A DNA stretch of 64,000 bases. It comes from Perna viridis. Taxonomy: Eukaryota. Positions within the stretch are counted from its first letter, which is position 1. Every line of letters begins with the position of its first letter. This document shows, in pieces, positions 7,897 to 34,901 of the stretch. The notes below the pieces were generated by a model, which saw only the letters and a list, made by a program, of their open reading frames with translations, did no database searches and was not told where the DNA came from. Where the stretch lies: the NCBI GenBank assembly GCA_037379345.1, contig CM074515.1, forward strand, positions 24,056,001 through 24,120,000, written 5' to 3'. The translations under genes were made by a program, and so were the position numbers.

Positions 7897-8211
7897 TTAA
7901 AACAGTTTGGAAGAATGTTGCTTGTGTTGTCTTTAAAGTACATCATAAACATATTCCCCATTCCAAATAACTCTGAATTATTTCCTTAAAAGCTATTGAT
8001 AACAAAACTGAGACATCGCAACTTGTATTATGCCAAATATTCAATAGCATAGAATAATGTATTTAAATGGAGATCTAAAAAAGCAGCACCATTTGGAACA
8101 TTTATGAGCTCATAATTTTGAAAATCAAAACTAAGTTAAAAGATATTCTGCACAACTCTTCTTGTCACAGAATTCCTTTAACTGAATTAACAACCATAAC
8201 CCTTAAAATAT

Positions 8212-11200
8212 TTAACAATCATCATAGTTTCTACTGGCATGTCCGACACAGTAGTACAGTACACTAGACAACAAAGCAAATGCTCCAGCACCAACAGCCA
8301 CCCAAAATCCCCATCCATAAATTAGCTGTTCCCCGGTAGAGCTTTCCTTGGTGAGTACTTCAGCATTGTGATCCAGGTAAGACTTTGCACCGAACACACA
8401 AACTGACACGGCAATCAACAGGACTGAAAAAAGCAAACATGAAGTTTATTACATGTACTTAAACTCAGGGATAAAAACTGGCATTAGCCTAGTCCCCCAT
8501 GGCTACTAGAATTTAAGATGGGCTCCCAAACTTTTGGGTAATATTTACATGTAGTTGAACATATAGCAAGTATTCAACAGAAATGTTATCTGGGATACCA
8601 GCTTGAAATTTCAAAGTTTTACCCCTGACTACAAATGTCAAGTATATGACTAAATTGATGATATATTTGAATAACAGCACTACACAAGAACATTGAATTG
8701 AAATTATACACTTTTTCAGGTTACATGTGTGCTCTAAAAAAGTCATTGAACTAATATATATACAAATTTATATCCCTAGGCTATTGTCCCTCAGATATAT
8801 CATATTCATACTATGAAAAGGTTAAAATAAGTCAATTAATCAGTTTAAATAGGCTTCTGATATTACTACTGATATATGGAGATCGATTGATTTATTACGG
8901 TTTTATGTCCTATGGTAAATATTTCATACATTTCTGGATGAGAACGGTTGACCAATCAAACAAACCCTGTTACTCTGAAACACTAAGCTGGCTCTTTCCT
9001 GTGCTAGCTCACAGAGGCAACAGCCCACAGGAAGCCATGTCACCCAAATGAGACACAAAATTCTGACTACAAACCAACTGGTCATCACTCCATCTCCTTA
9101 AAAAATATGTTTGGCAAAGGAGCAGTTACTTCCAATTTTAAAGTCTATGGTGTGACTCGGATGTGGATCAAGCCAACCACCTCTCTCACTCAAGGCAAGA
9201 TTGCTACACTTAGACTAACTAGACAGTTATGAAGGCCAAGATGATTGAGATGTGTACTTCTGGAAACTTAGTTCCAAGGGACATATCTATTACAAAATTC
9301 TAGGGATAAGAATTTCTTGGTAATATGCACTACTACATATTGTGTCCTTGGTACATACCAAGTCAGACGAAATTCTGTTCAGTATTTGATAGGAGTTGGA
9401 ACGACATAAAGAAAATTGATGGAAAAACATATTCCAGGTTAGGGTGAGGGTTGAGTGCTAAAAAACCTGTTTAACCCTGCCACATACTTTATGTGCCTGT
9501 CCCAAGCTAGGAACCTGAGCATAGCCAAGTCTTATGTTCACTTATTTGTTGAATTTTTTTGTACATATTACATGTAGGTCTATTTTCATCTTTTATGAAC
9601 AGTTTCACTTCATTTATTGTGGGGCCTTTAACAGCTTGCTAATGGTAAATTATCAGATATGAATTATGACAATTCCACTTTAAAACAGAAGAAAATCAGA
9701 TCTGATGTACAAAATGTTACTATTGTAAGTCCCAACAGAATATATAGATTAAAGGAGAATAGCACTATTGACCTATAATTCTTTTATCAAACTTAATCTG
9801 TTTTATTTAAGATTTATTTCCTCTATTTTACAGGGAAGACATGTAAGGTAAATATGAAGATTACAACTCAATTTACACTAAATACAATGTACATTGTACA
9901 TGTATATACATGCACTGTACACATACATTTGTAAATTTTTTTTATTAGTAGAAAACATTCATTCAAAACATTGTTTGAAAACACACATACAGTATATACA
10001 TGCAAGAGTAAAAATATGGCTCCATATTATATATATTTTTAATAATATAACCAGATCTGGAGGTTTGATCCCCTTTAAATTAGAAAATTGTGTAAATTTT
10101 GCACAAAAATTTGATTAAAAATGAACAAATAACAGCTTCCTTAATTAATAAAGATCTTTGGATCTGCCTGTATACCAGTATATTACTCACAGGTTAAATT
10201 AGCAAATGCTCCAGCAGCCTGATGAGCATTACACCCCTTACAGACATTGCACAATGACAACAGACCAATCAGGAGAGCCAACATGGTGGAGGCAATGGCA
10301 CAGGACATCAGTCCTTGGACTGCTTTGAACCAATCTGAAATAAATGGTGAGAAAATGGTCATTTAGTACACATTTACATCAGCTACATGTTCATGTATGA
10401 TAATAGCAAAGTTCTGATATCATGTAGCGATACATTATACATGTGTCAATTAAGGCTTTTAAAAATTATGAGTATTATAAAAAAAACCACACAATCAGGG
10501 GTTAAAAAATGATGGAGAGAGTAACTATGACAGAAAATTTAAATCAATCTTGAAATGAAAGTCGATACACATGTAGACTTGAGTATTGGCATTTCTAATT
10601 AAATTATTACCACATAAAAATACTGAAAAATTAAATTGTGAAAAGAGCAAGTAAATGTACATGTATATAATTTGATGTTGGTGATGTATATTTTTACATG
10701 TATTTGAGCAGGGTGATACATTTGTAGAGACATTGTGGCTTGCCCATTTTGACAGCTCATGTCCATTTCCTAGAGGTAACCTCTCTTTGAGTTGTACATG
10801 TACATGTATACATTGAAAATGGAAGAAATTCATAGGTCACTGAACAGTCATTATGCATAGAACTGCTTGTACATGTAGTTCTCTGTGTATTGTTAAGTTT
10901 TATGCTTGGTTGTTTTGTTCTTTACTTTAATATCGACTTTGGTTCTTTTTTCAATTACAATGTTAATTTCAACCTGTGTTATTGAAATTTGTTACCTACA
11001 TTTATTTGAGGTAAGGGAAGGGTTGAGCCCGATCAAACTAGATAGTATACAGCTCAACTACCGTCAACCAAAATACATGTGTATCTCTACAGTGGAATCC
11101 CTCATGTCCTCCACAAAAGTAAAAACTAGGACAAAATTGCTCCATTTCATTACTTTTTAGTATATTTTTCTGTCCATAACTGAGAAATACTACTAAACTG

Positions 11201-14200
11201 CTAGAACCATTAAATATACCTTGGTATAAAGACAGGAGTAGTAAACAACATACAATTTTTGAAGTGGTGCACCACCGTGGAGAATTTATACATGTACATT
11301 TATGTTGACTGTAGTGTACACACATGTACATGTACATGCAAGTACAAAATAATAACAAAAAGCTGTGGATACATGTACATGTACATTGAAATACATGTAT
11401 ATCATTCTGAATATTTCATAATCTGACCTTTAATAATTGATCATTCTATGCATGTTTTATAGAATACATGTACTTATCTCACAAAGTTTAAGATTAAAGA
11501 ATCCCTTGGTACAGTACATTATGTAATGTGCCATATGAATGTCATTGCTTTTTATCTTGGCATTTGCACAAAGACATTTTATGATATATTTTCAATAAAT
11601 CCTTTTTATATTGATACTTTTGTTTGAGTGAACAAGGTTTGCTTATCAGTCGATTTTGGATGTACATGTAGCTTACTGAAAAAAGCAGTACTCTCTCGAG
11701 GCAAATACAGCTATTTGTTAAAGTTTTTGTATTCTGTAACGATCTCAAGAGGTACATGTAAATCCAAATTCAACAGATTATTATAGTTTGTTTTATTCAG
11801 GGTTCTCCCATATGAAAATTTAACAATGATAAAAAAATTTTATGGCACAATTTTTGCTGACAAGGAAGCATTTAAGAATGAAGATATAACCATGACTAGA
11901 AAAAGTAAGGGAAGAATGAAATGACTACATGCTAACAAAACCCATTTTTTGTTTCATTAAGTAAATTCTTCCTATTTTCCTAATTTTTCTATTCCTTTAA
12001 CTAATACCATATACATTTACATGTATTACTCTGGCCTGAAAAATATGTTTCCAGAACCAATATTCAAGAAGCCATTATAATGAAACCAGTATATAAATGT
12101 AGGTGCAAACTAGACATTGCCCCTAAAGGGACTGGACTAATACCCCCGCAGCCAGTTGAACCCTTTAAATTTTAGGACCAATGTGGACATACACTGTATG
12201 ATTCATATTGGACACAATTTTTACGTTCGGATAGATTATGCAGTTTTGGCACACAATTTGCTGCCATTTCTAAAACATTCAACTTCAAACAGCAATCAGC
12301 ACTATTTTTTGCTGATAACACTAACAGAATATGACTTATTCCTGACAATATACTCATCTCCATATGGATATCTAACACTACAATTGAGTTTGACAACAAT
12401 CCCGCAAGTCCTTAAAGTAAGGAAGAGTCGAGAACAATGCATCAGACCAAGTTTTGCCACAAAATGTGTAACTTCCAACAGTCATCATTTCTACATGTAC
12501 ATTTTTTTGTTCCTGATAAAATGCATATCCCAACATGGTAATCTAAGACCCCATTAAGTTTCGTAACAATCCTGCAAATCGTTGAGGAGGAGTTGTGGAC
12601 AATGCATCAGACCAAGTTTTGCTACAAAATGTGTAACTTCCAACAGTCATCATTTCTACATGTACATTTTTTTGTTCCTGATAAAATGCATATCCCAACA
12701 TGGTAATCTAAGACCCCATTAAGTTTCGTAACAATCCTGCAAATCGTTGAGGAGGAGTTGTGGACAAGGCAACCAAGTTTTGCTACAAAATGTGTAACTT
12801 CCAACAGTCCATGAAAACTGATTTGTTCAACGTATCATAGTTTTCCTTTCCTCTTTTGTCAACAATGAGCAACTTGGCAGGTGTTTCTAGAAAAGCAGCG
12901 GATGCTTACCCTACCAGTGCACCTGGTCCATGCTCCCAGTTTTTAGTGGAGTAAGAGTTGCTCATTTACATGTACACTGTCCTTTCGTTACTTTGTACAT
13001 GTATGTAATATTTTGGTAATTTTATGTTCTTTGTTGTGTATGTCTGTTTTCCTTGTCGGTCTTTGCCCCTGGATTACATTGCACATTCTTTTGATTTCCA
13101 CTAGAATCTTGGTTCCCTTGATAACTTTTCCAACAGCCGTCATTTCTAAAATTTTTGTTTAAACATAAATTCCTGACAATATGTACATCTCAATATCATA
13201 ATCTAACACCCCATTAAGTTTCATAACAATCCTGCCAGCCTTTATGGAGGAGTTGTGGACAATGCATGTGACCAAGTTTTGCTGAAAAAATGCCTAAGTT
13301 CAACAGCCATCATTTGTACAATTGTCATCCAAACATAAATTCCTGACAGTATGCACATATCCATGTAGTTATATTACATGTACATGTTCATCCCACAAAG
13401 TTTTATAACAATGTTTCAAGCTGCTAAGAAAATAGTTCGGACAGACAGTTAGTTTGAAAACTATATACATAATGTACATGTATCCCCAAACTTTGTTTGT
13501 AGTGGTGTAAAAACATGTGCATGAATCAAATTAAAGAAGTTTACACAGGGAGGATTATTAATAAGAAGTTCATTCATGACAGAAACCTGATCTACATTCA
13601 TAAACCAGAACTAATATGGATCCAAAGCATGAGCAAACATTAACTGAACAGTCCAATTTTCTTAATCCCGGCAGACCAGCTATTGGAACATTGTACTACT
13701 TGTACATGTACATGTATAATAAGACTTGGGAAATTTTACTTTCTATTTCTTATCTATTTTTCCCACAACAAAACGATAGCATGACAGTGTAAACAAGTCA
13801 GCCATATTATTTTCAATTAAAAGTAAATTAGCAAATATCAGATGGAATACATGTAAACAATTTTAGGAGCACTTATATTTTCCTTTATTAGGTACATCAG
13901 TTTCTTTATGTTGAAAATGGTTTAATAAATGTATTCCATCTTCATTCAACTCAACGTATAAAAATAGCCACATGCATTTGGCCAAGGTTTTAATTGGCTC
14001 ACTATGAATATTTTCATCTGATTGACACATCCTACAGATTCAATTCATGGGGTAACTAATTATCAGCAATTACAGAATCATTTTCAAATTGGCTTCAATC
14101 ATAAATTTGTCATTATTAATTGGTTTACATGTTCTGAGTCAGTATTGGATGGGTTTCTCAAACAAAAAAATAATTAAAGGCTGATAACGGTAAAAGTAAA

Positions 14201-15732
14201 TCATGGCGAACAATAATCTAACAGTGGCCCTGATTCTTTAACCAATGCGGCCTGCCATGGTAAAACAGCTCTTGGAGAACCCAGTTTATTGTTGTAGTTT
14301 TTTACCCCACCATCGTCCAAGGTTAGGGTGAGGGTTGAGGGCTCACAAACATGTTTAACCCTGCCACATACTTTATGCGCCTGTCCCAAGCCAAGAACCT
14401 GTAGTCTAGTGTTTGTTGTTTTTTTGTATGATAATTGTTATTGGGTATACATGTATGTTTTTTTCTAAATATTAGGTCTTTCTTGTCATTTATGAATAGT
14501 TTCACTTCATATATTTTAGGTCCTTTTACAGCATGCTTTATGGTATGAGTTTTGTCCATCATTGAAGACAGTGTGATGACCAGTAGATGTTAAATTGTCC
14601 ACTGCTTGAATTTTGGTGGATGACTGTCTCACTGGCAATCATACCACATCTCCTATTTTTATACAATACAGAAACTGGAATTTTGGGATTGCTATTATTC
14701 AGGACATTCCTTCATGATCAACATGTGCCTTGCAATAGCACAACAATGTTTACAAGGCCAGAATAAGACAAAAATTTCTGAGTTGGTCCCTTGACAAAAA
14801 AAAAAGGGTTGCAATAACAGAGGAAAATAAAATAGGACTAAGGCCAAGAAAAAAATGTCTGTTTAGGCTTACAGTCCTCCCAAAAAATAGGTAGGTAGGC
14901 ATTTTCAATTAATATTTTTCATTTTATTTTTTTTCCACTAAAGTTGCACCTACATTTGTAAAATAGCATCATGTTTAAGTCATGAAAGTGTATAGTTTTA
15001 AGTAGAAAGTTTAATTTTTAACATACGCACCTATTAATCATGTCTTTTATTACAATACACTTATTTTTTGTAGGAATTTTGAACAAAATATAAGTACACT
15101 GTATTTTTAAATCTTACCTGCAAATATATTCAAACGCCATTGTGACCTGGTTTTAAACATACTTTCGGTTTTACCGGAAATGATCTATATTATACTGGAA
15201 ATTGGTCGAAATTACCGATTTTGTAAATTTTTGAGAAAAAATGTATTAAGGTCAGGAGAAAAAAATTATGGTCGGTCGGGAAACCTGAAACAGACATATT
15301 TTTATTTTTGGCCTAAATAAAATGACACACACTTTTAAGGGAAGATAAAAAAATCCGATATTATTGTACTAATGATAATGTACAAATGTTCATGTACAAA
15401 TACAATTATGAACCACACCCATTAACACTCAAGCAATTAACAGACCAGTTCTACATTTCACCCCCTTTTGTATGATCAGTACCTGGTAGACTTTTCTCAA
15501 TAAAAAAGTTATCAGAGAAGAACCATCGACAGTTGTCTAATATTCCTGTAGAAGCAGATCCACCAAGGCAGTTGATCCACAAACCACAATCGCAGTTGTT
15601 GTTTTGACACATGCACAAGTTGTCTATTTTGTTTACAAAGTGTAACCAGTTCGGCATCGCAAAACAAACTATAGTGGCTACCGTAGTGATAAGAACACAG
15701 AGAACAGCTGTAACAACAAGACAGGATGCCAT
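8212..15732 (-). CDS. Claudin/PMP22/EMP-superfamily tetraspan membrane protein, 3 coding exons (15483-15732, 10191-10334, 8212-8423), 201 aa
   Basis: Exons join in frame at GT-AG sites (CCAG|gtactg, tttcag|ATTGG, ACCT|gtgagt, tttcag|TCCTG), total 606 nt. Four hydrophobic helices. First loop has the claudin signature W...GLW..C...C (PNW...CGLWINC...NC), then DWFKAVQGLM, and YGWGFWVAVGA before TM4. Confidence 0.9.
8886..9222 (-). mobile_element. Degenerate tRNA-derived SINE
   Basis: Decayed tRNA-like head near 9222-9150 (minus strand, ending ...gagtcacaccatagactttaaaattgg) and a SINE-type tail ending in aatcaatc near 8890. Boundaries approximate. Confidence 0.45.
9435..9517 (+). ncRNA. Twister-ribozyme-like motif (type P5 permutation) in a dispersed repeat, copy A
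   Basis: P5 CAGGTT/AACCTG; P2' AGGG; TGAGGG; T|AA at 9472/9473; P2 CCCT; GC; P3 CACATA/TATGTG; P4 CCT/AGG enclosing GTCCCAAGCT (twister L4 GUCCCAAGCC). Repeat body continues to about 9650. Confidence 0.65.
12106..13513 (+). mobile_element. Non-autonomous Helitron/Helentron (pearl-like) element with internal ~165-bp tandem repeats
   Basis: Subterminal tacccccgca at 12141; near-identical units starting at 12435 and 12600 (period 165) plus diverged units; gacagacag remnant at about 13440; decayed 3' hairpin ccccaaactttgtttgtagtggtgtaaaaa. The layout matches bivalve pearl/HINE elements. Confidence 0.65.
12810..13128 (+). mobile_element. 3' end of a Penelope-like element inserted in the Helentron repeat
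   Basis: Starts with atgaaaactgatttgttcaacgtatcatag (MKTDLFNVS*), homologous to the ORF end at 46380. Followed by the shared tail ending gaatcttggttcccttgataactt. ttccaacag occurs on both sides (candidate TSD). Confidence 0.75.
14320..14400 (+). ncRNA. Twister-ribozyme-like motif (type P5), copy B; repeat body extends to about 14662
   Basis: P5 AGGTT/AACCT; AGGG-TGAGGG; T|AA at 14356/14357; CCCT; GC; P3 CACATA/TATGCG; CCT-GTCCCAAGCC-AAG. Near-identical to 9435-9517. Confidence 0.62.
14842..15313. mobile_element. PIF/Harbinger-type MITE
   Basis: taa|ggccaagaaaaaaatgtctgtttagg ... cctgaaacagacatatttttatttttggcc|taa: imperfect TIRs, GG..CC ends, 3-bp TAA duplication. Confidence 0.7.
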
Positions 15733-15817
15733 TATGCTCGTTTAAGGGACAGATAAAGACGAAAATTCCTTAATTTGTTTGTTTTACAACTTTCTTTCTG
15801 CTCTGATGCTTCAAGAA

Positions 15818-15848
15818 ACTTCCGGTCTGTACATTATGAATTCCGGTT
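15818..15848 (-). promoter_or_regulatory. Paired ETS-type motifs upstream of the claudin-like gene
   Basis: ACCGGAAGT (15818-15826) and AACCGGAATT (15839-15848) on the minus strand, about 90-115 bp upstream of the ATG, near where CpG content recovers. Confidence 0.45.
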
Positions 15849-20009: not shown

Positions 20010-20870
20010 ACCAAGGATAACGACTTCACAGTCAACAAAGAACATGAAACAACGAAACAACCAAAATTGCATGTACAAAAAAGCAAAAGTAAATGGGCGC
20101 CCGGACTCCATTAAAACAGGGGGCACGGACCCGTAGGGTAAGTGTCCTCTGATTTTCTAGAAAAACCCGACTATTGTATTAACGTCCGGGATAGATGGAT
20201 GAGGAAAATACTATGTACATGTATGACACGATGAACTTGAAATCGGCGCATTTCGATGGATACACCATAACGATCTACGAGTTGATGGTGACCACCATGA
20301 TGACTCTAATTTTATAGCAACACAACGTTGTTCCAAATGCCTACTTGTGAGAAGTTTAGAACGGTACAAAAAGTCCGCATAGTTTCGGCAGGCTCTTGCA
20401 TAACGTATGAGTTGCTATTTACTCCATACACAGTTGCTACAGATGAAAAAATAGTTGACAATACGGAATGAGACAAAATCTTCGCGTTTGTCGTACAGTT
20501 TAGTGTATTGAGTTTTCCTTTTCAATCGATCCCTATAAGAGTATAGGTCAAGATACGAAGCTGACTTCAAAGTGTCCTTGGTGTCACTTTTCTCGAGTAC
20601 TTTGGGGCAGATGCGATGTATAAAAATCCCGAAACTAAGATAGTTTAAAGACAACATTTCAACTATATAGCTGAAAACAGATCAAAGGGTCTGACTAAAC
20701 GATAGTCCTTAAGCTTTTGGATAAGATCAGTGTTATAAAAGTTGAGGAAAAGGTCAGCGAGCAGCTGAGCACAATCAATTTGTTCCCCTAGGAATGCGAC
20801 CACCTGTTCAAAACACGCCCACCACACTTGAGAACTGTTTTGTTGGAAAATTTAGTATATTTCGTGCAAA
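20010..20870 (-). mobile_element. Degenerate Penelope-like element (RT C-terminal half plus 3' tail)
   Basis: Minus-strand CGGRVL..., LSLN..FG..IHRI.PK, DT.KSASYLDL, TKLYDKREDF..FRIVN, followed by the shared tail (20010-20230). Homologous to 45290-46533. Confidence 0.8.
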
Positions 20871-21780
20871 CATTTGGGAAAATGAACAAATAATACCTTG
20901 GAACCTTCCTTATTTTTTGAAACCCATCTGGACCTCGGCCCGTTTTAATATCTCTGTATCCACTACTGCCTATAGCGTGATGTATACAGTTACAAGCCTC
21001 GCATTTTGTGCTTTCTCTAAGCCGCATACATGTAAGTAATCAGGTTGTATTTTTCTACAATATCTTAAAGTTGTTTTAAACCCTCGGATTATCAATTTGT
21101 GAAGGCATTCTATCTTCCCCAATCCTAATCTTTTCATCTTTTGTCATTTTCGGGAGCTGAATGCGTAAAATATTGTGAGGAAATTGAGTTGCAAGTGTGT
21201 AAATCAGGTTTAAGCATGTATTTTCTACCACAAGACAATTAAAGTGTGGTATTTGTAAAAGTCTTAAACTTTATACCATTTTATCATGGGTACTATGAAG
21301 AGATTCACTATTCGTAGAGCGTATTGATTATACAGTCAAGTTCCGTAGAAACTAAGATGAAATCGTACGGGTGAACATGTCTGCTAGTATGCTTCATCTA
21401 TATATGAATAAGAAAAGACGCCCACTTCTGTCTAGAGAGCTACCCGTAGAAGACATTAAACAGTCAGGTGACTGCGGTAAAATATGTTTGGCCAATTTGT
21501 TATGTTTTCACATTGATCCTTGACTGATTTGATAAAACGGATATTAAAATGGCTATCACTTTTATGTCATTTAGATTGAAAAACGTATGATCTGTTCATT
21601 GTAATAGTCATATAATACTGAAGACTGGACAACTACTATTTAACATAGTGCCATCCATCGAACGTATACCTTGAAAAGTACACTATAGACTATATAAACG
21701 TCTCAGAATGTGACGACTCTATTCGCTACACTGGCTCCATCGGATCATATTGATACAGGGCAAATAACGTCAACTTATAG

Positions 21781-22543: not shown

Positions 22544-25500
22544 TTAAGCACAATTGGCATCATTAAATGTTCGACGGTCTCTGATTCTTGGAATTCGTTC
22601 GTAGGTCAAAGAACCACCATCTGTTGTAGATGTTTCCTCCCAAGGATCAACAGGAGGTGGTGGTAGGGGTAGCTGGTCAATCTCCTCCAATGATGTCAAA
22701 CTCTTCGACTTTGTCACTACTTCCATATCAACATAACGTTTTATCCTGTAACAGTGCAGTAAGAATATGCAACGTAATTGGATAGCAATATAATTCCCCC
22801 CCTAGAAAGCAATGCAATGTCAGCGTGCAATAAATTTCCGTATTGCAGTAGTGCAAATGTAAAAAAAATTGCGACGTTATCCGTGACAAAAGTTCATTTA
22901 AACAAGACTAAAATATATTGCCATACAATAAAAGGTTTATTGCATGAATACTCCACGGGACTCAAACTCGTACCGCTGTGATATCTATGGCAACGCCGCC
23001 TGCACAAAGTCCAGCGCCCTAGACCACTTTCTCTCTATATATATATCCACTTTTGTTATCATATCAAAAGATAAAGGACGCATATCATGTGTTTAATCTG
23101 ATATTACATGTATGTCTACATCGCTTTTTTAACAAAAAGTAGAACTTGTTGTACGAATTCCAGAAAGATAAAAATAGACAAAGTATATCTGATATATATA
23201 GTGATACAGAGTGACTCATAAGGAAAATTTCTAACCAAGATCTAAAAAATGACGCCGAATGTACTGATTTTTTTGTGTACACGTGTCACTGTATAAATAT
23301 TCAAGTATTTACTTTCAATAACATCATAAACGCACATAAACGTATTACCAATTGAATGCACTTTTCTTTGCCAAAATGTTCTGCTAATATCTTCCAGAAA
23401 TGTTGCCAACAACCAGAGGATTACTTTGAATGACGTTGTTGTGCCGATTTATTGTTTTTTTTTTTTTATAGTTTATCCCTATTTTTTTCAAATTTGAAAT
23501 GTAAAATTCAAGTGAAGCGGAAAATAGTGAATCAATTTCAATTTCTTAAACTTCATGCAGGTGCAGATAGGTCTGGAAAACAAATAAATAACTTTGAATA
23601 GCCTTCAGTTTATCAATCCATTTATTTCAACTATGTACTCATGGTCAAAGTGTATAACTTGTGCATATTAGGTCTATGCACATCAATCCATTATAATGTC
23701 AGAAGAATGGAGGAAAAGAACTTACAATAAAGGTTGACTATACCGATGCGATTGAGGTGGTGATTGTTCTGGAAGTTTTCCTGCAAAAAATACAAAGGAA
23801 ATTTTTTTGGATTGCTACTCCAGCGTCTTTGTGATGCCGCTGTGAACTCGGAGATCTCAGACATCGTTTTCTAAAATTTTGATACAGGCCAGGCTAACCT
23901 CGATGTACTATACACAGTATATCTGTATATGTAATATATATTATCTGTTGTTTTTTTATTGCTTCTACTTAAAATTATAGGTGGCAAGCAAGCAACCGGA
24001 CTCAAGACCCTTTTAACAAAATTTAAAATATATCTGTATATATGTGCATGTACATACTGCGTATTGTGTTGTCCTACTTCAAGTGTATATGTGTATGTAT
24101 TGCAGCCAGAAACGAGGCGATTGAAACAATCATGCATTTTAGACAAACAAGGTAAAATACCCAAGCACGTGCAAGATAGCATACAATAAATATATTGTAT
24201 TGATGCTTAGGGTTTGGAAAGGAACTTATAACGAAAAGTGTCGTTAATTTAGAAATATCTAGATTAAATATTGCTTACTTGGTTGCTTTCGACATTTCAG
24301 ACAAATAACACAGCAGATTACAGACAAGACAACTACGGCCGCGGAAACCACAATACACACCATCAACAAGTTATCTGTTAATGTTATTTCTGAAAAAAGA
24401 TAATGTTTAAAATTAATGCCAACCTAGAGCTCCTGTTGCATTTAAGCAATTGCAAACGGTTGTGATCAGGTGGCGTTGAATGGGGGAAAATGCATTCAGT
24501 TTCGATCATTCGTTGTGACTCGCTTTTTCAAAATGCTTCGAATATTAATCGTATGTAATTATATTATCACTGGCTGTTCTAACTACCTTTTATAATTGTT
24601 TTAAGCTTTTTTATTACGTTAACATTAACATTCAGTGGCAAAATGAACAGTTTTGGCAGCATAGTGTGAGTTTTGAACCATATTCATTAATGAGCATCTC
24701 GTCCATACTTTGATTACATTCATTACATAGGTATATCAATTCCAATTAACCTAATGATGAAAAACAAATTTCCAGTTTAATAGGGCATCAACCATTTTTA
24801 TACTGAGGGAGTGGGGGTTGGGTACTGAGATTATTTTGAAAAAAATAAGAATTTAGCACAAAAATGATTATTCAATATATCTCTCATTACTTAACAATGT
24901 AGATTTTCAAATACTTTTTTTAGCTCCATCTGTAGCTGAAGAAAACAACAATTTTTGCACTTGTACGAAGAACAAATGTTACTCCGCATAAAATCCCAGC
25001 CCCCTCCTTTGAGAAGAAAATAAGCTGTACCTAGCTTGCGATAAGTTAACACATGTGCTCAAAAAGAAACCAGAGGATATAAGCAATTTAAATCACCCAC
25101 CTGGGTCTCACGTATCCATAAATCAATAATGTTAGAACATCAACGCAAACAAAGAAAGGGCAATTTCACCTATACGGACTCATCTTACGACTACGACCAA
25201 GTGATGAAAGTTATTGAACACTTGATGCTGCATATAAAACCTCTTCTAGTCATACACATATGCCCAACCACACAGAATTCACACCCAATTTCTACATTGT
25301 ACTACAGCAGGGGCCTAGAAATTCCGAAAAGTGTCGGCGATGGCAGGAAGAATGGGTCAGCTTCAAAGATTTTCAGTTTTTCTATATAATCAAATATTAC
25401 GAGCATAAAAGAGGGACGGTGCCTCATGCTCACCTATTTTCTACTTATACATGTAACCATGTCAGCCGTTTTGGTTTGATTACAAATGTGACGATACAAC

Positions 25501-28500
25501 TTTGAACTTTTCAAGGTCAACGCATCAGCATTTATTAAATAAAAAGTTTGATGCAAACTATCATAGTCTACATTCACATTCACACAACCGAACTTTTGTT
25601 GTCGGCATAAGAAAAAAGACAACCATATAACATAGATACGTACTTTTGACAGTGACGAACAAGGATGATTTAGTCGGTTCAACTGTATCTGAAACCTCTT
25701 TACACTCGTAATTACCGGTATCCGTTGCAGTTACACTATACAACACAAAGTGACCATTCTCAACATTGTCATAAGACATAAAGTTGTGGCGGGCATCGGT
25801 CTTGGATATTTCAATGCCGTCTTTATACCACGATATGGCAGACAGGGGATATCCTGTCTCTTTACAATATAAATGGAGTGTTTCACCCTCTGTCACTTTA
25901 TCCAGCCCTTTCAGTTCCAATTCCGGTCGCGCTGGAATAAAATAATTGCACAAACATATTATATACAATAGAATGTTCATAAATGAATAGCTTAAGTTGA
26001 CTTATATTCATCCAATGTACTAAATGGCATTTTATCCAGTCACATGTCCCGCGTCTGACAACATGAAATATTAATATCCAAGAATTCGCTTAAATTATAG
26101 CAAATATCCGAATCTAGGACAGTAAAATAAATTAATTTACCGTGAACCTCAACTGGAATGGGAAAATGTTGGTGCTGGTTTTTCCCAAACTTTATTAGAA
26201 TATTGCACTCGTAATGACCTGCCACGGTTTTATCTAAAATGTAAAGGCATAGAAAAATGTTAATTCAAAAATATAATTATTCCACCATTTATTCACCATA
26301 TAAACCCAACTCTAACCAATACCTCATAGTGCAAGGCGTACAAAATCCAACTCTAACCGACACCTCATAGACACCTTTTCGTCTGGAAAGCGGAGGACAC
26401 ATTTTTATCTTAATCTCCATTTTGAACATTTGTTAATTTAGTATTGCTCCGTCTAAAAGTCATGCAGCGTTTAATATATCACATATTTGATCTTTAATCC
26501 TAATTAGGATAGAACTATTTCGATTAAAGCGCTTATATAATCCTTAAATTGAGAGATACTTTTGACCATAGTTATTTTGTAAAAAGTTGTACTAAATTTG
26601 TCGGAAAATGTTCTTGCACATTATCCTTGTAGATTTCCATCGGTATGTGCAAAATCCAGCTCTAACCGACACCTCACAGTGGAAAGTGTACAAAACCCAA
26701 CTCTAACCGACACCTCATAGTGCAAGGTGTGCAAAACCCAACTCTAACCGACACCTATTCAAGGTGTGCAAAACTCAACTCTAACCGACACCTCATAGTG
26801 CAAGGCGTGCAAAACCCAACTCTAACCGACACTTCATAGTGGAAGATGTGCAAAACCCAACTCTCAGTGGAATGATCTTCGTTTAATACCAGTAATATGA
26901 CATCTGAAAGATTTCCAGTCAATAAATATGTACAAGTATGTCTATACTTTTGCATGATTCTTAGATAGAGCAATGATTCAGTCTGTTTCCTTTTTTGAAT
27001 ATCTCTAACCGAAATATCAAATATAAATGGTTTTTTATATAATACAATGTTATAACTGTGAACTGAAAAAAAACCAAAACAAAACAATAACGTCCATAGG
27101 CAATCTATTTACCCACTGAGGATATAGACTTGACTATGGACGTAACTATGGACGTGATTTATATAAAAGAAAATTTCATATTTGGGTAACTTACCCAAAT
27201 ATAAAATATAAAATGTTCTTTTATATACTACAATGTTATGACTGATCGATTTTTGACGCTACTCTTTTGGATGTGCAAAGTTATAAACGCACCCGGATCG
27301 CTGATGATGACTTTTCTGGAATTCGAACTGTACCGGAATTTCCCTTTCATGGATTCTATTAAACTGAGGGGTTGCTGATTCTTTGTCCAGTATATTTCCA
27401 AAAGTGTCTTCCCATCATCGAAGATTTCATCGATGTTACAATGTAGACTTAGCTCTTTGGAATCTCTTTCAAGAGTTTCAATGACTTTTTCCCCTGTGTA
27501 ACAAGATAAATTTTATAAGATAGAACATAAATTTGCCAATTAAGTACCTTTCTGTATAAGAATCAGGCAATGTGTGGCACATCATATTTCTCAATTTGGT
27601 CTTTTTTGCCTCAAATATATTCAATACATCTAGAAAACAACTGAAAATTTATCCTGAAAGAAGGAAAAGTTTACAAACACTTTGATGGTTATTCATAGAG
27701 GTAATAGTGTATAAATACTTGGATAATGCAATAAAATCTCGGTGTTTTTTCCCTTCATGTGCCACATCTTATACATATTTTGCCTGATTCTTAGACGGAG
27801 AAGTTCTTAATATTATAGAAGCATGTAAGTTTCGAGCTTTACTATTTGTATTTATAGTTTGTACTACTTGGTGAAATTTACGTGTAGTTGATGAAAAAGC
27901 CAACAATTTAATTTTGTTTGTAACAAGTTTTCTGAATGCTTGGTTATCTTTGAACATTTATAAGGAATATTTCTATTTTTAACAGGTTATGCAAAATAAT
28001 ATGGTTTGGGCTAGTTTAAATGTAAACTGCAGCTAACCTTGTTATTGGGTATAATCTGTTCCAAATTAAGACACGTTCCTTAAGTTTCTTATTAAAACTT
28101 GACCTACAAACCATTCCATTCAGTTATGTGAAGGTTCTAAGAACACTCCATTCTGATTTTCTCTTCAGAATCAACCATTTAGATTACAGTTTTTATGACT
28201 GAGGTAACATTTTTTACAGTGTCTGGATCGGTAGCCCCCTTTCATGAATTTCTGGATCTGCCCCTGGACGGTATTCCGCCTCACGTTATAGTTAACCTAC
28301 CCGTGATTATTTTTAGTTCGGTTTGGCGGGAAAGACTTCCTACAGAACAACTTATATTGATGGAATCTTTAATTGAAACTACATCTTTTCTTAAAGTTGA
28401 CGTTGTCATGGAAACACCACTCTCTACCCTCTTGTGCATGGAAACATAAAACCCGTTTGTTTGAATGTTGTCTATATTTGCCCATTCTATTTCCTTGTGG

Positions 28501-31500
28501 TTTGTCCCTCTGTATTCACATGTTAATTCGAAAAGATCGTCTTTCATAATCCACAAATGTGAAAAAGAAGGTATCATGTCCAATTCAGCTGAAAAATAAA
28601 GTTCATTGATGTCAGTTAGCAAAGTTTATTCTGAAGGTTTTGTTTCTTATATCAACTATTAAGTCCAAACAAAATAACCCCAAGTAAACTCCTCGAAACT
28701 GAGATTATAGCAGAATACAATTTTTTAAGGCTAAGATAACTGACGCAAGCCATATAGATGGAAGTCAAAAGGAAGGCTGAAAGCAATTAGAAGCACACAT
28801 CCCACTAAGAATTTGGAGCACAGACTAAGTAAACCAATAGGATAAGCATCATCAACTTTTCCAAAACACAGTGATAGTCTTACATATTAGAACCAGAAAG
28901 TTTGGAAAAGGTTTTTGATTTATGTTTAAAAATTTTGTTAGAGAATGTGTTGGTCATTTACCTAAGTTGTACTGTGTTTCCTCTCAGTGACACATGTATA
29001 GTTACCATGGTGATATCTACTAAGTCTGAAATCAAAACTCAACACTATTGTCACTTACAGAGAGTTTTTTTTAACATACTGCGGTTTTGGTTATTATATT
29101 TGTCTTATGAAATTTTTATAGCCTTTTACCTGCTGTAACATCTATAGTCTTGTTTAGTCTCGTAATCGTGTCTTTACATGTATATTTCCCAGAGTCTGCA
29201 AACATCGTTGTCATTTTCTTCAATACAGCAATAGTTTCTATTCTGTTTCCATACCATGTCAAGTTGGTTGACTGTATGTATTCCGAACTACCAAGCAATC
29301 TGGTGCCATCTTTATACCAGACAATATTTGGTAGTTTGGGACCGGTAACGTTACATGTCAAAAACAGTTGGTCAGGTACAATGATGCCTCGTGATTCGCC
29401 ATGGGTAGATATTTCTATAAGAATGAATACTGTAAACCAACTAATTTTCGCGACTTTCGCGGACGTAGAATTATCATGAAAATAAAAAGTCGCGAAAAAG
29501 CATACATATACGCTATCTGCATATGTTCAAGCAATTATTTAAATTATTAAAAACGCAAAAATAAATCTTCGCGAAATGAGCCAACGACAGCATAACGCGA
29601 AAGAAAGTAGTCGCGAAAATAAGTTGGTCTATAGTAGTCAATATTAACCTATTATCTAGGAACTATTATGATAAACATTTTACTCAGTGTTTCTTTCGCT
29701 GACGAGAGTAAAACAAATCAAGCCATGAAAATGAAATATTTATAATGATGCAGTAGACTATTTCATTCCCTTCCATGGAACAAATAATTTTAAATCGATC
29801 TTAGAAAAAAATGGCGGCGAAAGTTGGAATATTATTTTTTTAAAACATAATCATACAATGAATCTGTACATATACTAACTAGTAGGAAGTGTACATCCTT
29901 GTAACTCCAACCTCAAAGATATCTTTCTATGCCAGGTCAGTGGATGGATACGCACGTGCTTAGTCACAATGGGTACAGGAAGCTTTGTGGTCACATACGA
30001 TTGGGAATCAAAATTCCCTTCAAATATCTGAAATAGGAATTACAGAAATTAGTTGGGCTGTAGAATATACCAGTACTAGCTAGATGGTGAGTACGTATAT
30101 TGTACTGCCAGCCTTTAAATATTGTTTATAATGGGTCTATTCGTAAAAGAATAGATATAGACAATGTTTGCTTCAAAATCATATAAAAATAAATATTAAA
30201 AAAATAATAAGGAAGAAAAAAACGAAAAACAAATAAAATCATGTATTCATAACCCACAAGAGCTGGATAGTTTAAAGAAATTAATAAGTTTCTATTCACA
30301 ATTATTTGTAGTTTATTTTTTTTATTTTGATACGAACCGTTGCATTTGTATCGTAGCTGCTATATATTCTCCATTTCCGACCATCCTGACTAAACGACAG
30401 TGTGTATGACGTCACCCACTCTTCTCTGCCATCACTTACACGACGTCCAGACAAATTGATTTCTCTAATAATTTTCAGTATCGAAAATGAAACCTATCAT
30501 GAAATCCCAAAATTACTGTTTAGCTAAACCATAAGGCTTATTTGACGAAGCTGATATTTTTATTATTATGTGAGTTTTAGAGTCCGGGTTGCCCATTCAC
30601 TTTTGTTTCTTTGAACGCGTTATTTTGGTTATTTCATGTACTTTGTTGTGTGTCTATTTTTCCTGTCCAGTCTTTATCCATTGAATATATGTTTCAGATT
30701 GCCGTTCAAATTTTTGTTCCCTTGATTACTCTTTGTAAATGGTCATAGCAGTATTGACATTACATTTCTGAAAAGTAGGTGCAATGTTCTTGCAGGGAAC
30801 GTGGGAAAACTAACCTGTATCCATTGTTGTTTGTCTGATATAACGGGGGACCAGCCACCACAGACTGACTGGTTCCATTTTGCACAATATGGTGAGTCGT
30901 CATGGAGAATATCTTTGTAGTATGAGGACGCTGTGACTGATTGATCTGGTACTCCTTCCGGTGCAGATATCAATTTACCATTACAGGAATCTGGGAGTTT
31001 TAAATTAAAAGCAATAGTTTGAGTTCTACTGATACTGTAGAGTTTATAAGTTTGTTTCAAAGTCCAACATTTGTTTACGATATTAATGCTTACTGGACGC
31101 AAAATCAGGATATAATAACCAAAATTAGAAGAGTAGTTAAAACTACCAACAGACTCACTCATTAAAGAAAGTTTGTAGCTTCATGTTTCATTTTCAGTAA
31201 AGAAATCTAAATATTTGTACTATTCATGTACATGGTGTATTTTAAAGCAATAACAAGTTTAAAGAACTGGAACATGACAAACTTTTCATACGTATGACCT
31301 GTTAGCCGATATATCAAAATGGAACCGATAGTCTGAACTACATCTTGATTTGGTTATGAATAAGTACGAATTTCTTCTTACTGACGGACTTTTTTTCGAG
31401 TTAAGTATGCTTTTGAACTAAAATCATGAAAAAAATATTTTTAATAATTGAAGTATATTAAACCTGTGGAATTCGTTTTTATCGCAGCTTCACTTACATT

Positions 31501-34765: not shown

Positions 34766-34901
34766 ACCACAGGAGCTTGCTCCCACTATCAAATACGCAG
34801 CCCCACTACTATATTACACAGGGGCTAGCACTCACTAGTACATGTATATAACCTATACTAGTGGGGCTGCATATTTGATAGTGGGAGCAAGCCTCTGTGG
34901 T
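34766..34901. mobile_element. Small foldback/MITE, ~43-bp inverted arms
   Basis: accacaggagcttgctcccactatcaaatacgcagccccacta (34766-34808) pairs with tagtggggctgcatatttgatagtgggagcaagcctctgtggt (34859-34901), about 3 mismatches. Confidence 0.8.

Follow-up and report, generated by a model that had tools for sequence, protein, structure and literature searches.

The DNA analysed here is a window of 64,000 nucleotides (nt) from Perna viridis (GenBank assembly GCA_037379345.1, contig CM074515.1, positions 24,056,001 to 24,120,000 of the forward strand), in which a spliced, claudin-like gene on the minus strand holds two plus-strand fragments of one element family within its introns. The fragment at 14285-14666 is a decayed, 5'-truncated piece of a bivalve Naiad element, a clade of Penelope-like elements (PLEs), and carries a variant of the type-P5 twister fold, predicted to be a self-cutting RNA, with two palindromes in the place of helix P1. 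A sequence-only reading of this stretch had described a twister-like copy with a perfect palindrome at its cleavage site, and had proposed that P1 forms between molecules or tandem copies. The features of the two fragments are listed below, with all coordinates given as positions in the window and with the majority sequence of the family (family A) as the reference for changes in the window copies.

14285-14666, plus strand: Naiad family A 3' end (pseudo-long terminal repeat, pLTR, or 3' untranslated region, UTR), 5'-truncated, from local alignment to the family majority, covering -67 to +305 from the cut site
14320-14324, plus strand: 5' strand of P5, partner 14396-14400, from the sequence
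14325-14329, plus strand: 3' strand of P2, with G>T at 14329 giving a mismatch or bulge beside the catalytic G, from alignment to the majority and to Rfam RF02684
14330-14334, plus strand: GAGGG, consisting of the general-base G (by homology), an A and the T1 pseudoknot strand, from the RF02684 alignment of the near-majority copy L004 and T1 covariation
14336-14345, plus strand: palindrome 1, disrupted by C>G at 14340, from comparison with the family majority
14347-14356, plus strand: palindrome 2, AAACATGTTT, intact, its final U being the predicted N-1, from the sequence and comparison across families
14357-14358, plus strand: A+1 (general acid by homology) and A+2, with the predicted cut at 14356/14357, from RF02684 homology and a U-A site as in PMC8501958
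14359-14364, plus strand: 5' strand of P2 and the T2 dinucleotide GC, from the multi-family and RF02684 alignments
14366-14378, plus strand: P3 hairpin, its terminal pair gone through T>C at 14378, from comparison with the family majority
14380-14395, plus strand: P4 and loop L4 (partners of T1 and T2), with G>A at 14394 leaving one C-A mismatch, from the RF02684 alignment and majority comparison
14396-14400, plus strand: 3' strand of P5, from the sequence
9434-9647, plus strand: second fragment of family A that carries this motif, with palindromes 1 and 2 each disrupted, from the sequence and comparison with the majority

The helix names and the roles of the general-base G and A+1 are those of the twister literature, and they are consistent with the RF02684 alignment and with PMC11662667 and PMC8501958. 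The letters previously described are all present: GAGGG (14330-14334) is followed by TTGAG-GG-CTCAC (14335-14346) and by AAACATGTTT (14347-14356), which ends at the U before AA (14357-14358) and closes, as a perfect palindrome, a 21-nt linker that follows GAGGG. What was read as TTGAG-GG-CTCAC at the P1 place is in fact a second palindrome, TGAGCGCTCA in the family majority, disrupted by the C>G at 14340; the perfect palindrome holds as a family trait for palindrome 2, while palindrome 1 and the parent element had been overlooked. Relative to the majority the window copy is changed at 14319, 14329 (P2), 14340 (palindrome 1), 14378 (P3) and 14394 (P4), with one defect each in P2 and P4, and it keeps N-1, A+1, A+2, the general-base G and the AA of L4. 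Rfam searches of the window and of 14290-14430 gave no twister match, and the copy folds no better than shuffled sequences (z -0.02); its description as twister-like is borne out by the layout. The copy at 14320 has lost palindrome 1; its core letters are intact, but it is likely a passive relic. The second copy, which the same reading had placed at 9435, is real, and an exact 10-mer is common to both (at 9472 and 14356). The same G>T in P2 is also found in both family A copies within this host gene (14329 and 9445), and is present in 3 of 30 family A copies.

A search of the genome returned 592 candidates, and all of those scored (40/40) matched at 86-100%. The core pattern had 191 exact genome matches versus 0 for a reversed control, so the core motif is not a product of chance. 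At 30 fetched loci the 3' end is fixed approximately 300 nt past the predicted cut and the 5' end is variable, and immediately upstream of the motif the longer family A copies (L251, L256, L361, L365 and L366) carry Penelope-like remnants of a reverse transcriptase (RT) and its thumb. Naiads are characterized by an N-terminal endonuclease, a C-terminal RT and a DKA motif (Craig et al. 2021, PMC8557442). The arrangement of a C-terminal PLE RT with thumb followed by a 3' UTR is present in copies of family A and of its sister family B, which shares the same core. A family B piece matches RVT_1 (E 3e-4), and upstream of the RT in the family B locus L122 we found by eye an N-terminal GIY-YIG-like remnant that resembles published Naiad proteins and has no Pfam match. 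The DKA motif occurs in family B copies L363 and L378, the region in question being missing from family A copies. As a point against the assignment, no endonuclease was found in any fetched, truncated copy of family A, and the 40 long loci included no full-length family A copy. An RT with DKA in L046/L121 was considered as family A and rejected, as it belongs to a further family (family C, described below).

The published Naiad ends, of which the last ~500 nt of 30 of approximately 55 consensus sequences were read by eye (supplement of PMC8557442), contain the same motif in 5 of 30 cases (Mgal, Bpla, Mphi, Scon and Mmer), corresponding to 5 of the 11 bivalve ends. A different conserved motif is seen in 9/30, and neither motif in the remaining 16/30. 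Judged by such resemblances, a mytilid bivalve is the probable host. We conclude that both window copies are almost certainly the tail of a Naiad PLE, and that a conserved type-P5 twister variant in Naiad 3' ends is real. Two relatives of family A gave SECIS_1 (selenocysteine insertion sequence) matches of 33 and 32 bits against a gathering score of 35 (L230:531-595 and L233:469-533, both minus strand), ~200-250 nt upstream of the twister, and a comparable ATGA...AAA...TGA stretch is present in the majority sequence of family A; among seven copies from the genome itself, none (0/7) scored. These families may be selenoprotein Naiads, which have so far been described for clams and spiders.

The motif follows the strand order of a type-P5 twister, P5-P2-GAGGG...UAA-P2-GC-P4-L4-P5, with both pseudoknots. 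The near-majority copy L004 matches RF02684 with E 0.0035 and 23 bits, short of the gathering score (37.6), and in this alignment the N-1/A+1/A+2 core, the general-base G and the AA of L4 are all aligned and the linker occupies the place of P1. The linker formed no P1 helix either in the RF02684 alignment or in the folds, and because it does not pair as P1 we regard the motif as a variant and not as a plain type-P5 member. Rfam searches of seven cleaner loci from outside the genome gave weak type-P1 matches alone. A pattern scan of metagenomes returned at least 120 stretches from few lineages, 84 of which possess the full layout among the matches listed. P4 and most of L4 were fixed by the scan pattern, and P4 pairing in the scans is consequently no evidence; the free T1 pair in these 84 loci is A-T in 68, C-G in 10 and other in 6, and T2 is paired in 80. 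In a 16-row alignment the structure outperformed both column shuffles and slid controls, with 87% paired and 10 of 23 pairs showing two-sided change, although some rows are out of register; T2 is changed on both sides in 5 of the 16 rows. By eye, the Scon and Mmer consensus ends show two-sided changes in P2, P4, T2 and P5, and the sequence of P5 differs yet pairs in other families. We are therefore highly confident that the motif adopts a twister fold of type P5, for which self-cleavage at U/A is predicted.

Other twisters were encountered during these searches. Other metagenome contigs (L243, L214, L132, L173, L144, L231 and L208) contain type-P1 twisters that share the P4/L4 and GAGGG-TT core, with RF03160 matches on L243 and L214; this group probably represents truncated RTE-type twisters, from which the Naiad form may have arisen by circular permutation. 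Within the genome, L264, L265, L283, L319, L337 and L353 belong to older, diverged twister-bearing families with an ACC/GGT form of T1.

The family A majority has two palindromes, TGAGCGCTCA and AAACATGTTT, which are one base apart and not complementary to each other. In the 30 best-scoring family A copies, picked for likeness to the window copy, palindrome 1 is intact in 8 and palindrome 2 in 19. The corresponding palindromes of family B are GTGATCAC and AAAGTACTTT, and nine further groups (M1 to M9) were sorted by eye from 71 of the at least 120 metagenome loci, making 11 groups in total with A and B. Forms of palindrome 1 in these nine groups include GAGATCTC, GGGATCCC, GGGCCC, GGCGCC and GGCGCGCC, and their palindrome 2 has CATG, CCGG or CTAG at its centre or is odd with one central base; taken across all families, the centres are CATG, GTAC, CCGG and CTAG. 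When compared with linker shuffles, the presence of two non-overlapping palindromes reached p<=0.004 in 7 of the 11 groups, 0.02-0.03 in two and ~0.1 in two. The innermost pair is changed on both sides in 8/16 alignment rows for palindrome 1 and in 5/16 for palindrome 2, L230 (the closest outside relative of family A) differs by a compensatory change at the palindrome 2 centre, and G-U compatible variants occur in family B and in groups M6 and M8. In most groups examined the last position of palindrome 2 is N-1 or N-2, and palindrome 1 begins 1-2 nt past T1. The palindrome first noticed in the window is hence conserved, being present in the family majority and remaining self-complementary through sequence changes in other families, as expected if copies pair with each other; the refuting condition set by the sequence-only reading, a palindrome that the family does not conserve, therefore does not apply. 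Since a hairpin must leave a loop and recognition by a protein calls for a fixed sequence, pairing between RNA copies is the simplest reading; a hairpin in particular is disfavoured because it cannot pair its own centre, yet the centres covary. Judged from these sequence comparisons, the palindromes probably pair between two RNA copies.

A second, unrelated Naiad 3' motif also contains palindromes, and two copies of it lie in the window:

12870-12960, plus strand: Naiad family C end motif, two palindromes (TTTCTAGAAA and ACCGGT) around a GCTYAC loop, from the pattern
about 20100-20180, minus strand: further copy of the Naiad family C end motif, from the pattern

The family C motif has 12,647 exact genome matches versus 0 in the control, and its layout, with other palindromes and covarying helices, is the one found in 9 of the 30 published Naiad ends (oysters, ark clam, pearl oyster and hemichordates). 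It has no Rfam match and is possibly another ribozyme. A degenerate RT remnant of Naiad family C is also seen at 20150-21000 (minus strand), just upstream of the host gene.

The predicted monomer suggests what pairing between copies might achieve. In families A and B and in groups M1 and M4 the GAGGGUU strand is predicted to pair with the cut-site strand, with A+1 paired at P 0.98-1.00, and the T1 strand is predicted to be paired (P>=0.95) in 7 of the 11 groups. Because the predicted fold of a single motif hides the cut site in several families, auto-inhibition is a better reason for a dimer than a missing P1. Insertion as partial tandems, the typical Naiad arrangement, would let a single transcript carry two motifs. 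A lone motif would fold its GAGGGUU strand onto the cut-site strand, in a hairpin that buries A+1. Palindrome 1 would then pair with palindrome 1 of a partner and palindrome 2 with palindrome 2, forming two side-by-side helices of about one turn each that would free P2 and T1 in both copies. Both copies could then cut at U/A to yield a unit-length RNA that might be circularized and copied, which is the model proposed for Penelope hammerheads (PMC6765202), and a unit-length RNA ligated into a circle would fit the copies that span the cut site. These were counted in 86 copies, a set obtained by subtracting 12 copies of other families from a sample of 98 loci (the first 100 entries in a list of 693 matches, minus two near-tandem neighbours), and 73 of the 86 span the predicted site. 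For family A the calculated energies about match, with 2 x 12.0 kcal/mol for leaving the monomer fold and -18.7 and -8.8 for the duplexes. On this model we put the chance that cleavage is gated by pairing between RNA copies at about even. The best explanation as a whole, namely that a Naiad tail carries a type-P5 twister whose palindromes, standing in place of P1, pair between copies and switch on the predicted cleavage, is given the same even weighting. More tentatively, Naiads might have swapped the hammerhead for ribozymes gated by palindrome pairs. The twister would then be an obligate dimer in which one-turn helices cross-link two active sites and open the auto-inhibitory hairpin, same-family tandems alone would cut, and the family C-type motif would be an undescribed ribozyme under the same gate; we consider this broader scheme rather doubtful.

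Several observations weigh against a gate of this kind. A+1 is unburied in the predicted monomer of M2, M6, M7, M8 and M9 (P<=0.11) and partly buried in M3 (0.71) and M5 (0.60), and neither of the pseudoknots, both of which favour the active monomer, is taken into account by the folding program. When two strands were folded without constraints, the two-helix dimer appeared in 0 of 5 cases, one palindrome being used in four and P5 being swapped in family A. Palindrome 2 is weak or odd-length in several families (duplex ~-4.5), the covariation counts are drawn from few lineages, and tandem copies are rare, a second same-strand motif lying within 3 kb at 2 of the 98 loci (a tandem of ~1 kb is seen in L049/L051). 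P1 is reported to be dispensable and defects in P2 and P4 to be tolerated in natural twisters (PMC11662667), and P1-poor Schistosoma twisters cut (PMC8501958), so that a monomer may cut. Lastly, because the unrelated family C motif also has two covarying palindromes, dimerization may serve the element rather than the twister. These points make it a serious, if less probable, alternative that the twister cuts as a monomer and that the palindromes are family-specific RNA dimerization signals for template switching or tandem formation in reverse transcription. A dispensable P1, the family C motif at the same position in 9/30 published ends and an A+1 that is predicted to be free in 5 of 11 groups all speak for it. 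On the other hand, as 73 of 86 copies continue past the cut site, a monomer that cuts efficiently would have to be re-ligated; sequestration of the T1 strand is predicted in 7 of 11 groups; and the end of palindrome 2 at N-1/N-2, together with the start of palindrome 1 just past T1, ties the palindromes to the active site.

Gating by pairing between copies must also be set against readings that dispense with RNA-RNA pairing or with cleavage. That the palindromes act in DNA or bind protein, as pLTR promoter or endonuclease sites, or are small hairpins, has some appeal, given that PLE pLTRs hold promoters (PMC6765202, PMC8557442) and that odd-length palindromes could close a 3-nt loop. We nevertheless think it improbable: four different self-complementary centre tetramers stay paired, which fits neither a single binding site nor a hairpin loop, and the G-U compatible variants reflect an RNA-type tolerance. 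The sequence-only proposal, in which two molecules together restore P1 by way of the AAACATGTTT palindrome, survives in part, in that pairing between RNA copies is retained with two different palindromes involved. It gains from a palindrome that ends at N-1 and is conserved and covarying. However, in P1 the strand after GAGGG pairs with the one that precedes the cut. When palindrome 2 pairs with itself, two pre-cut strands are brought together and the post-T1 strand has no part in the helix; nor can the two palindromes, which are not mutually complementary, supply P1. The accompanying inference that cleavage is restricted to multimers does not follow from the missing P1 either, since P1 is dispensable for cleavage (PMC11662667) and its absence does not force a dimer. 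We regard a rebuilt P1 as very unlikely. Equally remote, in our estimate, is a twister-derived fold that is no longer catalytic and has a structural or protein-binding role alone. Scores under the Rfam gathering thresholds and the fact that most copies span the site are compatible with it, as is the weak enrichment of 5' ends there: 5 ends fall in -4..+1 versus 1.4 expected (p 0.015, the interval having been picked after looking), and 3 versus 1.4 (p 0.17) without one internal deletion and one diverged copy. Against this, the helices change among mytilid and clam Naiads, yet the positions of the catalytic G and A are preserved, as are both pseudoknots.

The gene that hosts both window copies has the following exons:

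15483-15819, minus strand: exon upstream of the intron holding the 14285-14666 copy, from spliced contigs and an open frame
10191-10334, minus strand: middle exon, from spliced contigs
8000-8423, minus strand: last coding exon, claudin/PMP22-like, extending beyond the stretch given here, from spliced contigs and a Claudin_2 match

The splice evidence comes from contigs of runs labelled as RNA, the label being a guess: contigs of runs X2 and X15 join 8000-8423, 10191-10334 and 15483-158xx, and an X5 contig joins the last two. The last exon matches Claudin_2 weakly (E 8e-5, below cut-off), and the minus-strand frames of the gene read as a claudin-like protein. Both family A copies are on the plus strand in introns of this minus-strand gene, and are therefore intronic and antisense, as had been stated for the copies at 9435 and 14320. 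The accompanying suggestion that sense copies were purged found no backing in orientation counts: the window offers n=2, and likely intronic copies are 8 antisense versus 5 sense (p 0.58, at low power). A flank-skew proxy, poorly calibrated on the window genes, gave 49 versus 49 downstream, and one of its six skew measures reached a nominal p of 0.016 in upstream flanks that possibly hold element sequence. Neighbouring exons with Pfam hits gave a host-gene match at 18 of 98 loci, with 10 antisense, 7 sense and 1 ambiguous, in an underpowered test that scanned 300 of 1,756 candidate frames and dropped two transposon matches and one low-complexity match. Sense intronic copies do exist, as L304 directly follows a dynein exon, and if dimer gating holds, little purging of solo sense copies would be expected. 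Elsewhere in the window, exons of an immunoglobulin-domain protein were recognized by eye from open frames at 25500-29600 (minus strand), and a long inverted repeat at 34778-34890 is probably a small DNA transposon that scores as MIR1862 far below threshold.

Naiads dominate bivalve genomes and succeed without the hammerhead of other PLEs according to Craig et al., whose report describes no canonical hammerhead for Naiads and whose main text makes no mention of twisters (PMC8557442). A conserved twister at the hammerhead position fills this gap, and suggests that self-cleavage matters to Naiads and that the ribozyme class is interchangeable. A dimer-gated twister, if true, would be a natural design of a new kind, and would account for the presence of hundreds of solo copies in introns on either strand without cleavage of host transcripts. 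Such a twister would amount to an RNA switch that senses concentration or tandem arrangement and whose recognition arms can be exchanged. In a search of non-subscription literature we found no paper that joins Naiads and twisters, and none on a dimeric or Penelope-borne twister. CHiTA has reportedly added bivalve twisters, and some Naiad twister sequences may already be in CHiTA, even with cleavage data. Minimal Penelope hammerheads are said to have been described by Cervera and de la Pena in 2014 and by Lunse et al. in 2017. The accessible part of a 2026 preprint on retrozymes makes no mention of twisters (10.64898/2026.07.22.740005).

Among known systems, the motif resembles type-P5 twisters (RF02684, clan CL00120) in strand order, conserved core and both pseudoknots, and differs from them in having a P3 and in lacking P1, in whose place stands a linker of 21-25 nt with two palindromes. 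Its host element shares with the Naiad clade (Craig et al. 2021, PMC8557442) a C-terminal RT, 5' truncation and a high copy number in bivalves, and through sister family B probably also the DKA motif and an N-terminal endonuclease. Minimal Penelope hammerheads in which stem III is palindromic are proposed to cleave as dimers (PMC6765202), and the Naiad motif is like these minimal type I hammerheads of PLE pLTRs in its element class and position, in the replacement of a helix by self-complementary sequence and in the dimer cleavage proposed for tandem transcripts (PMC6765202, PMC7761336). The ribozyme class is different, however, and there a single palindrome rebuilds helix III, whereas the two palindromes here cannot rebuild P1; the resemblance to dimer-cleaving PLE ribozymes would accordingly be one of working alike only. 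A parallel for a poor or absent P1 on a retrotransposon, with the same GAGGG-UU and GUCCCAAGC core, is provided by the T-variant twisters of Schistosoma Perere-3 and the truncated RTE twisters (PMC8501958, PMC7761336). Those twisters belong to type P1 and lie at the 5' end, their cut marking where the element starts, whereas the Naiad form is of type P5 and lies in the 3' UTR, ~300 nt before a fixed 3' end, with most copies spanning the cut.
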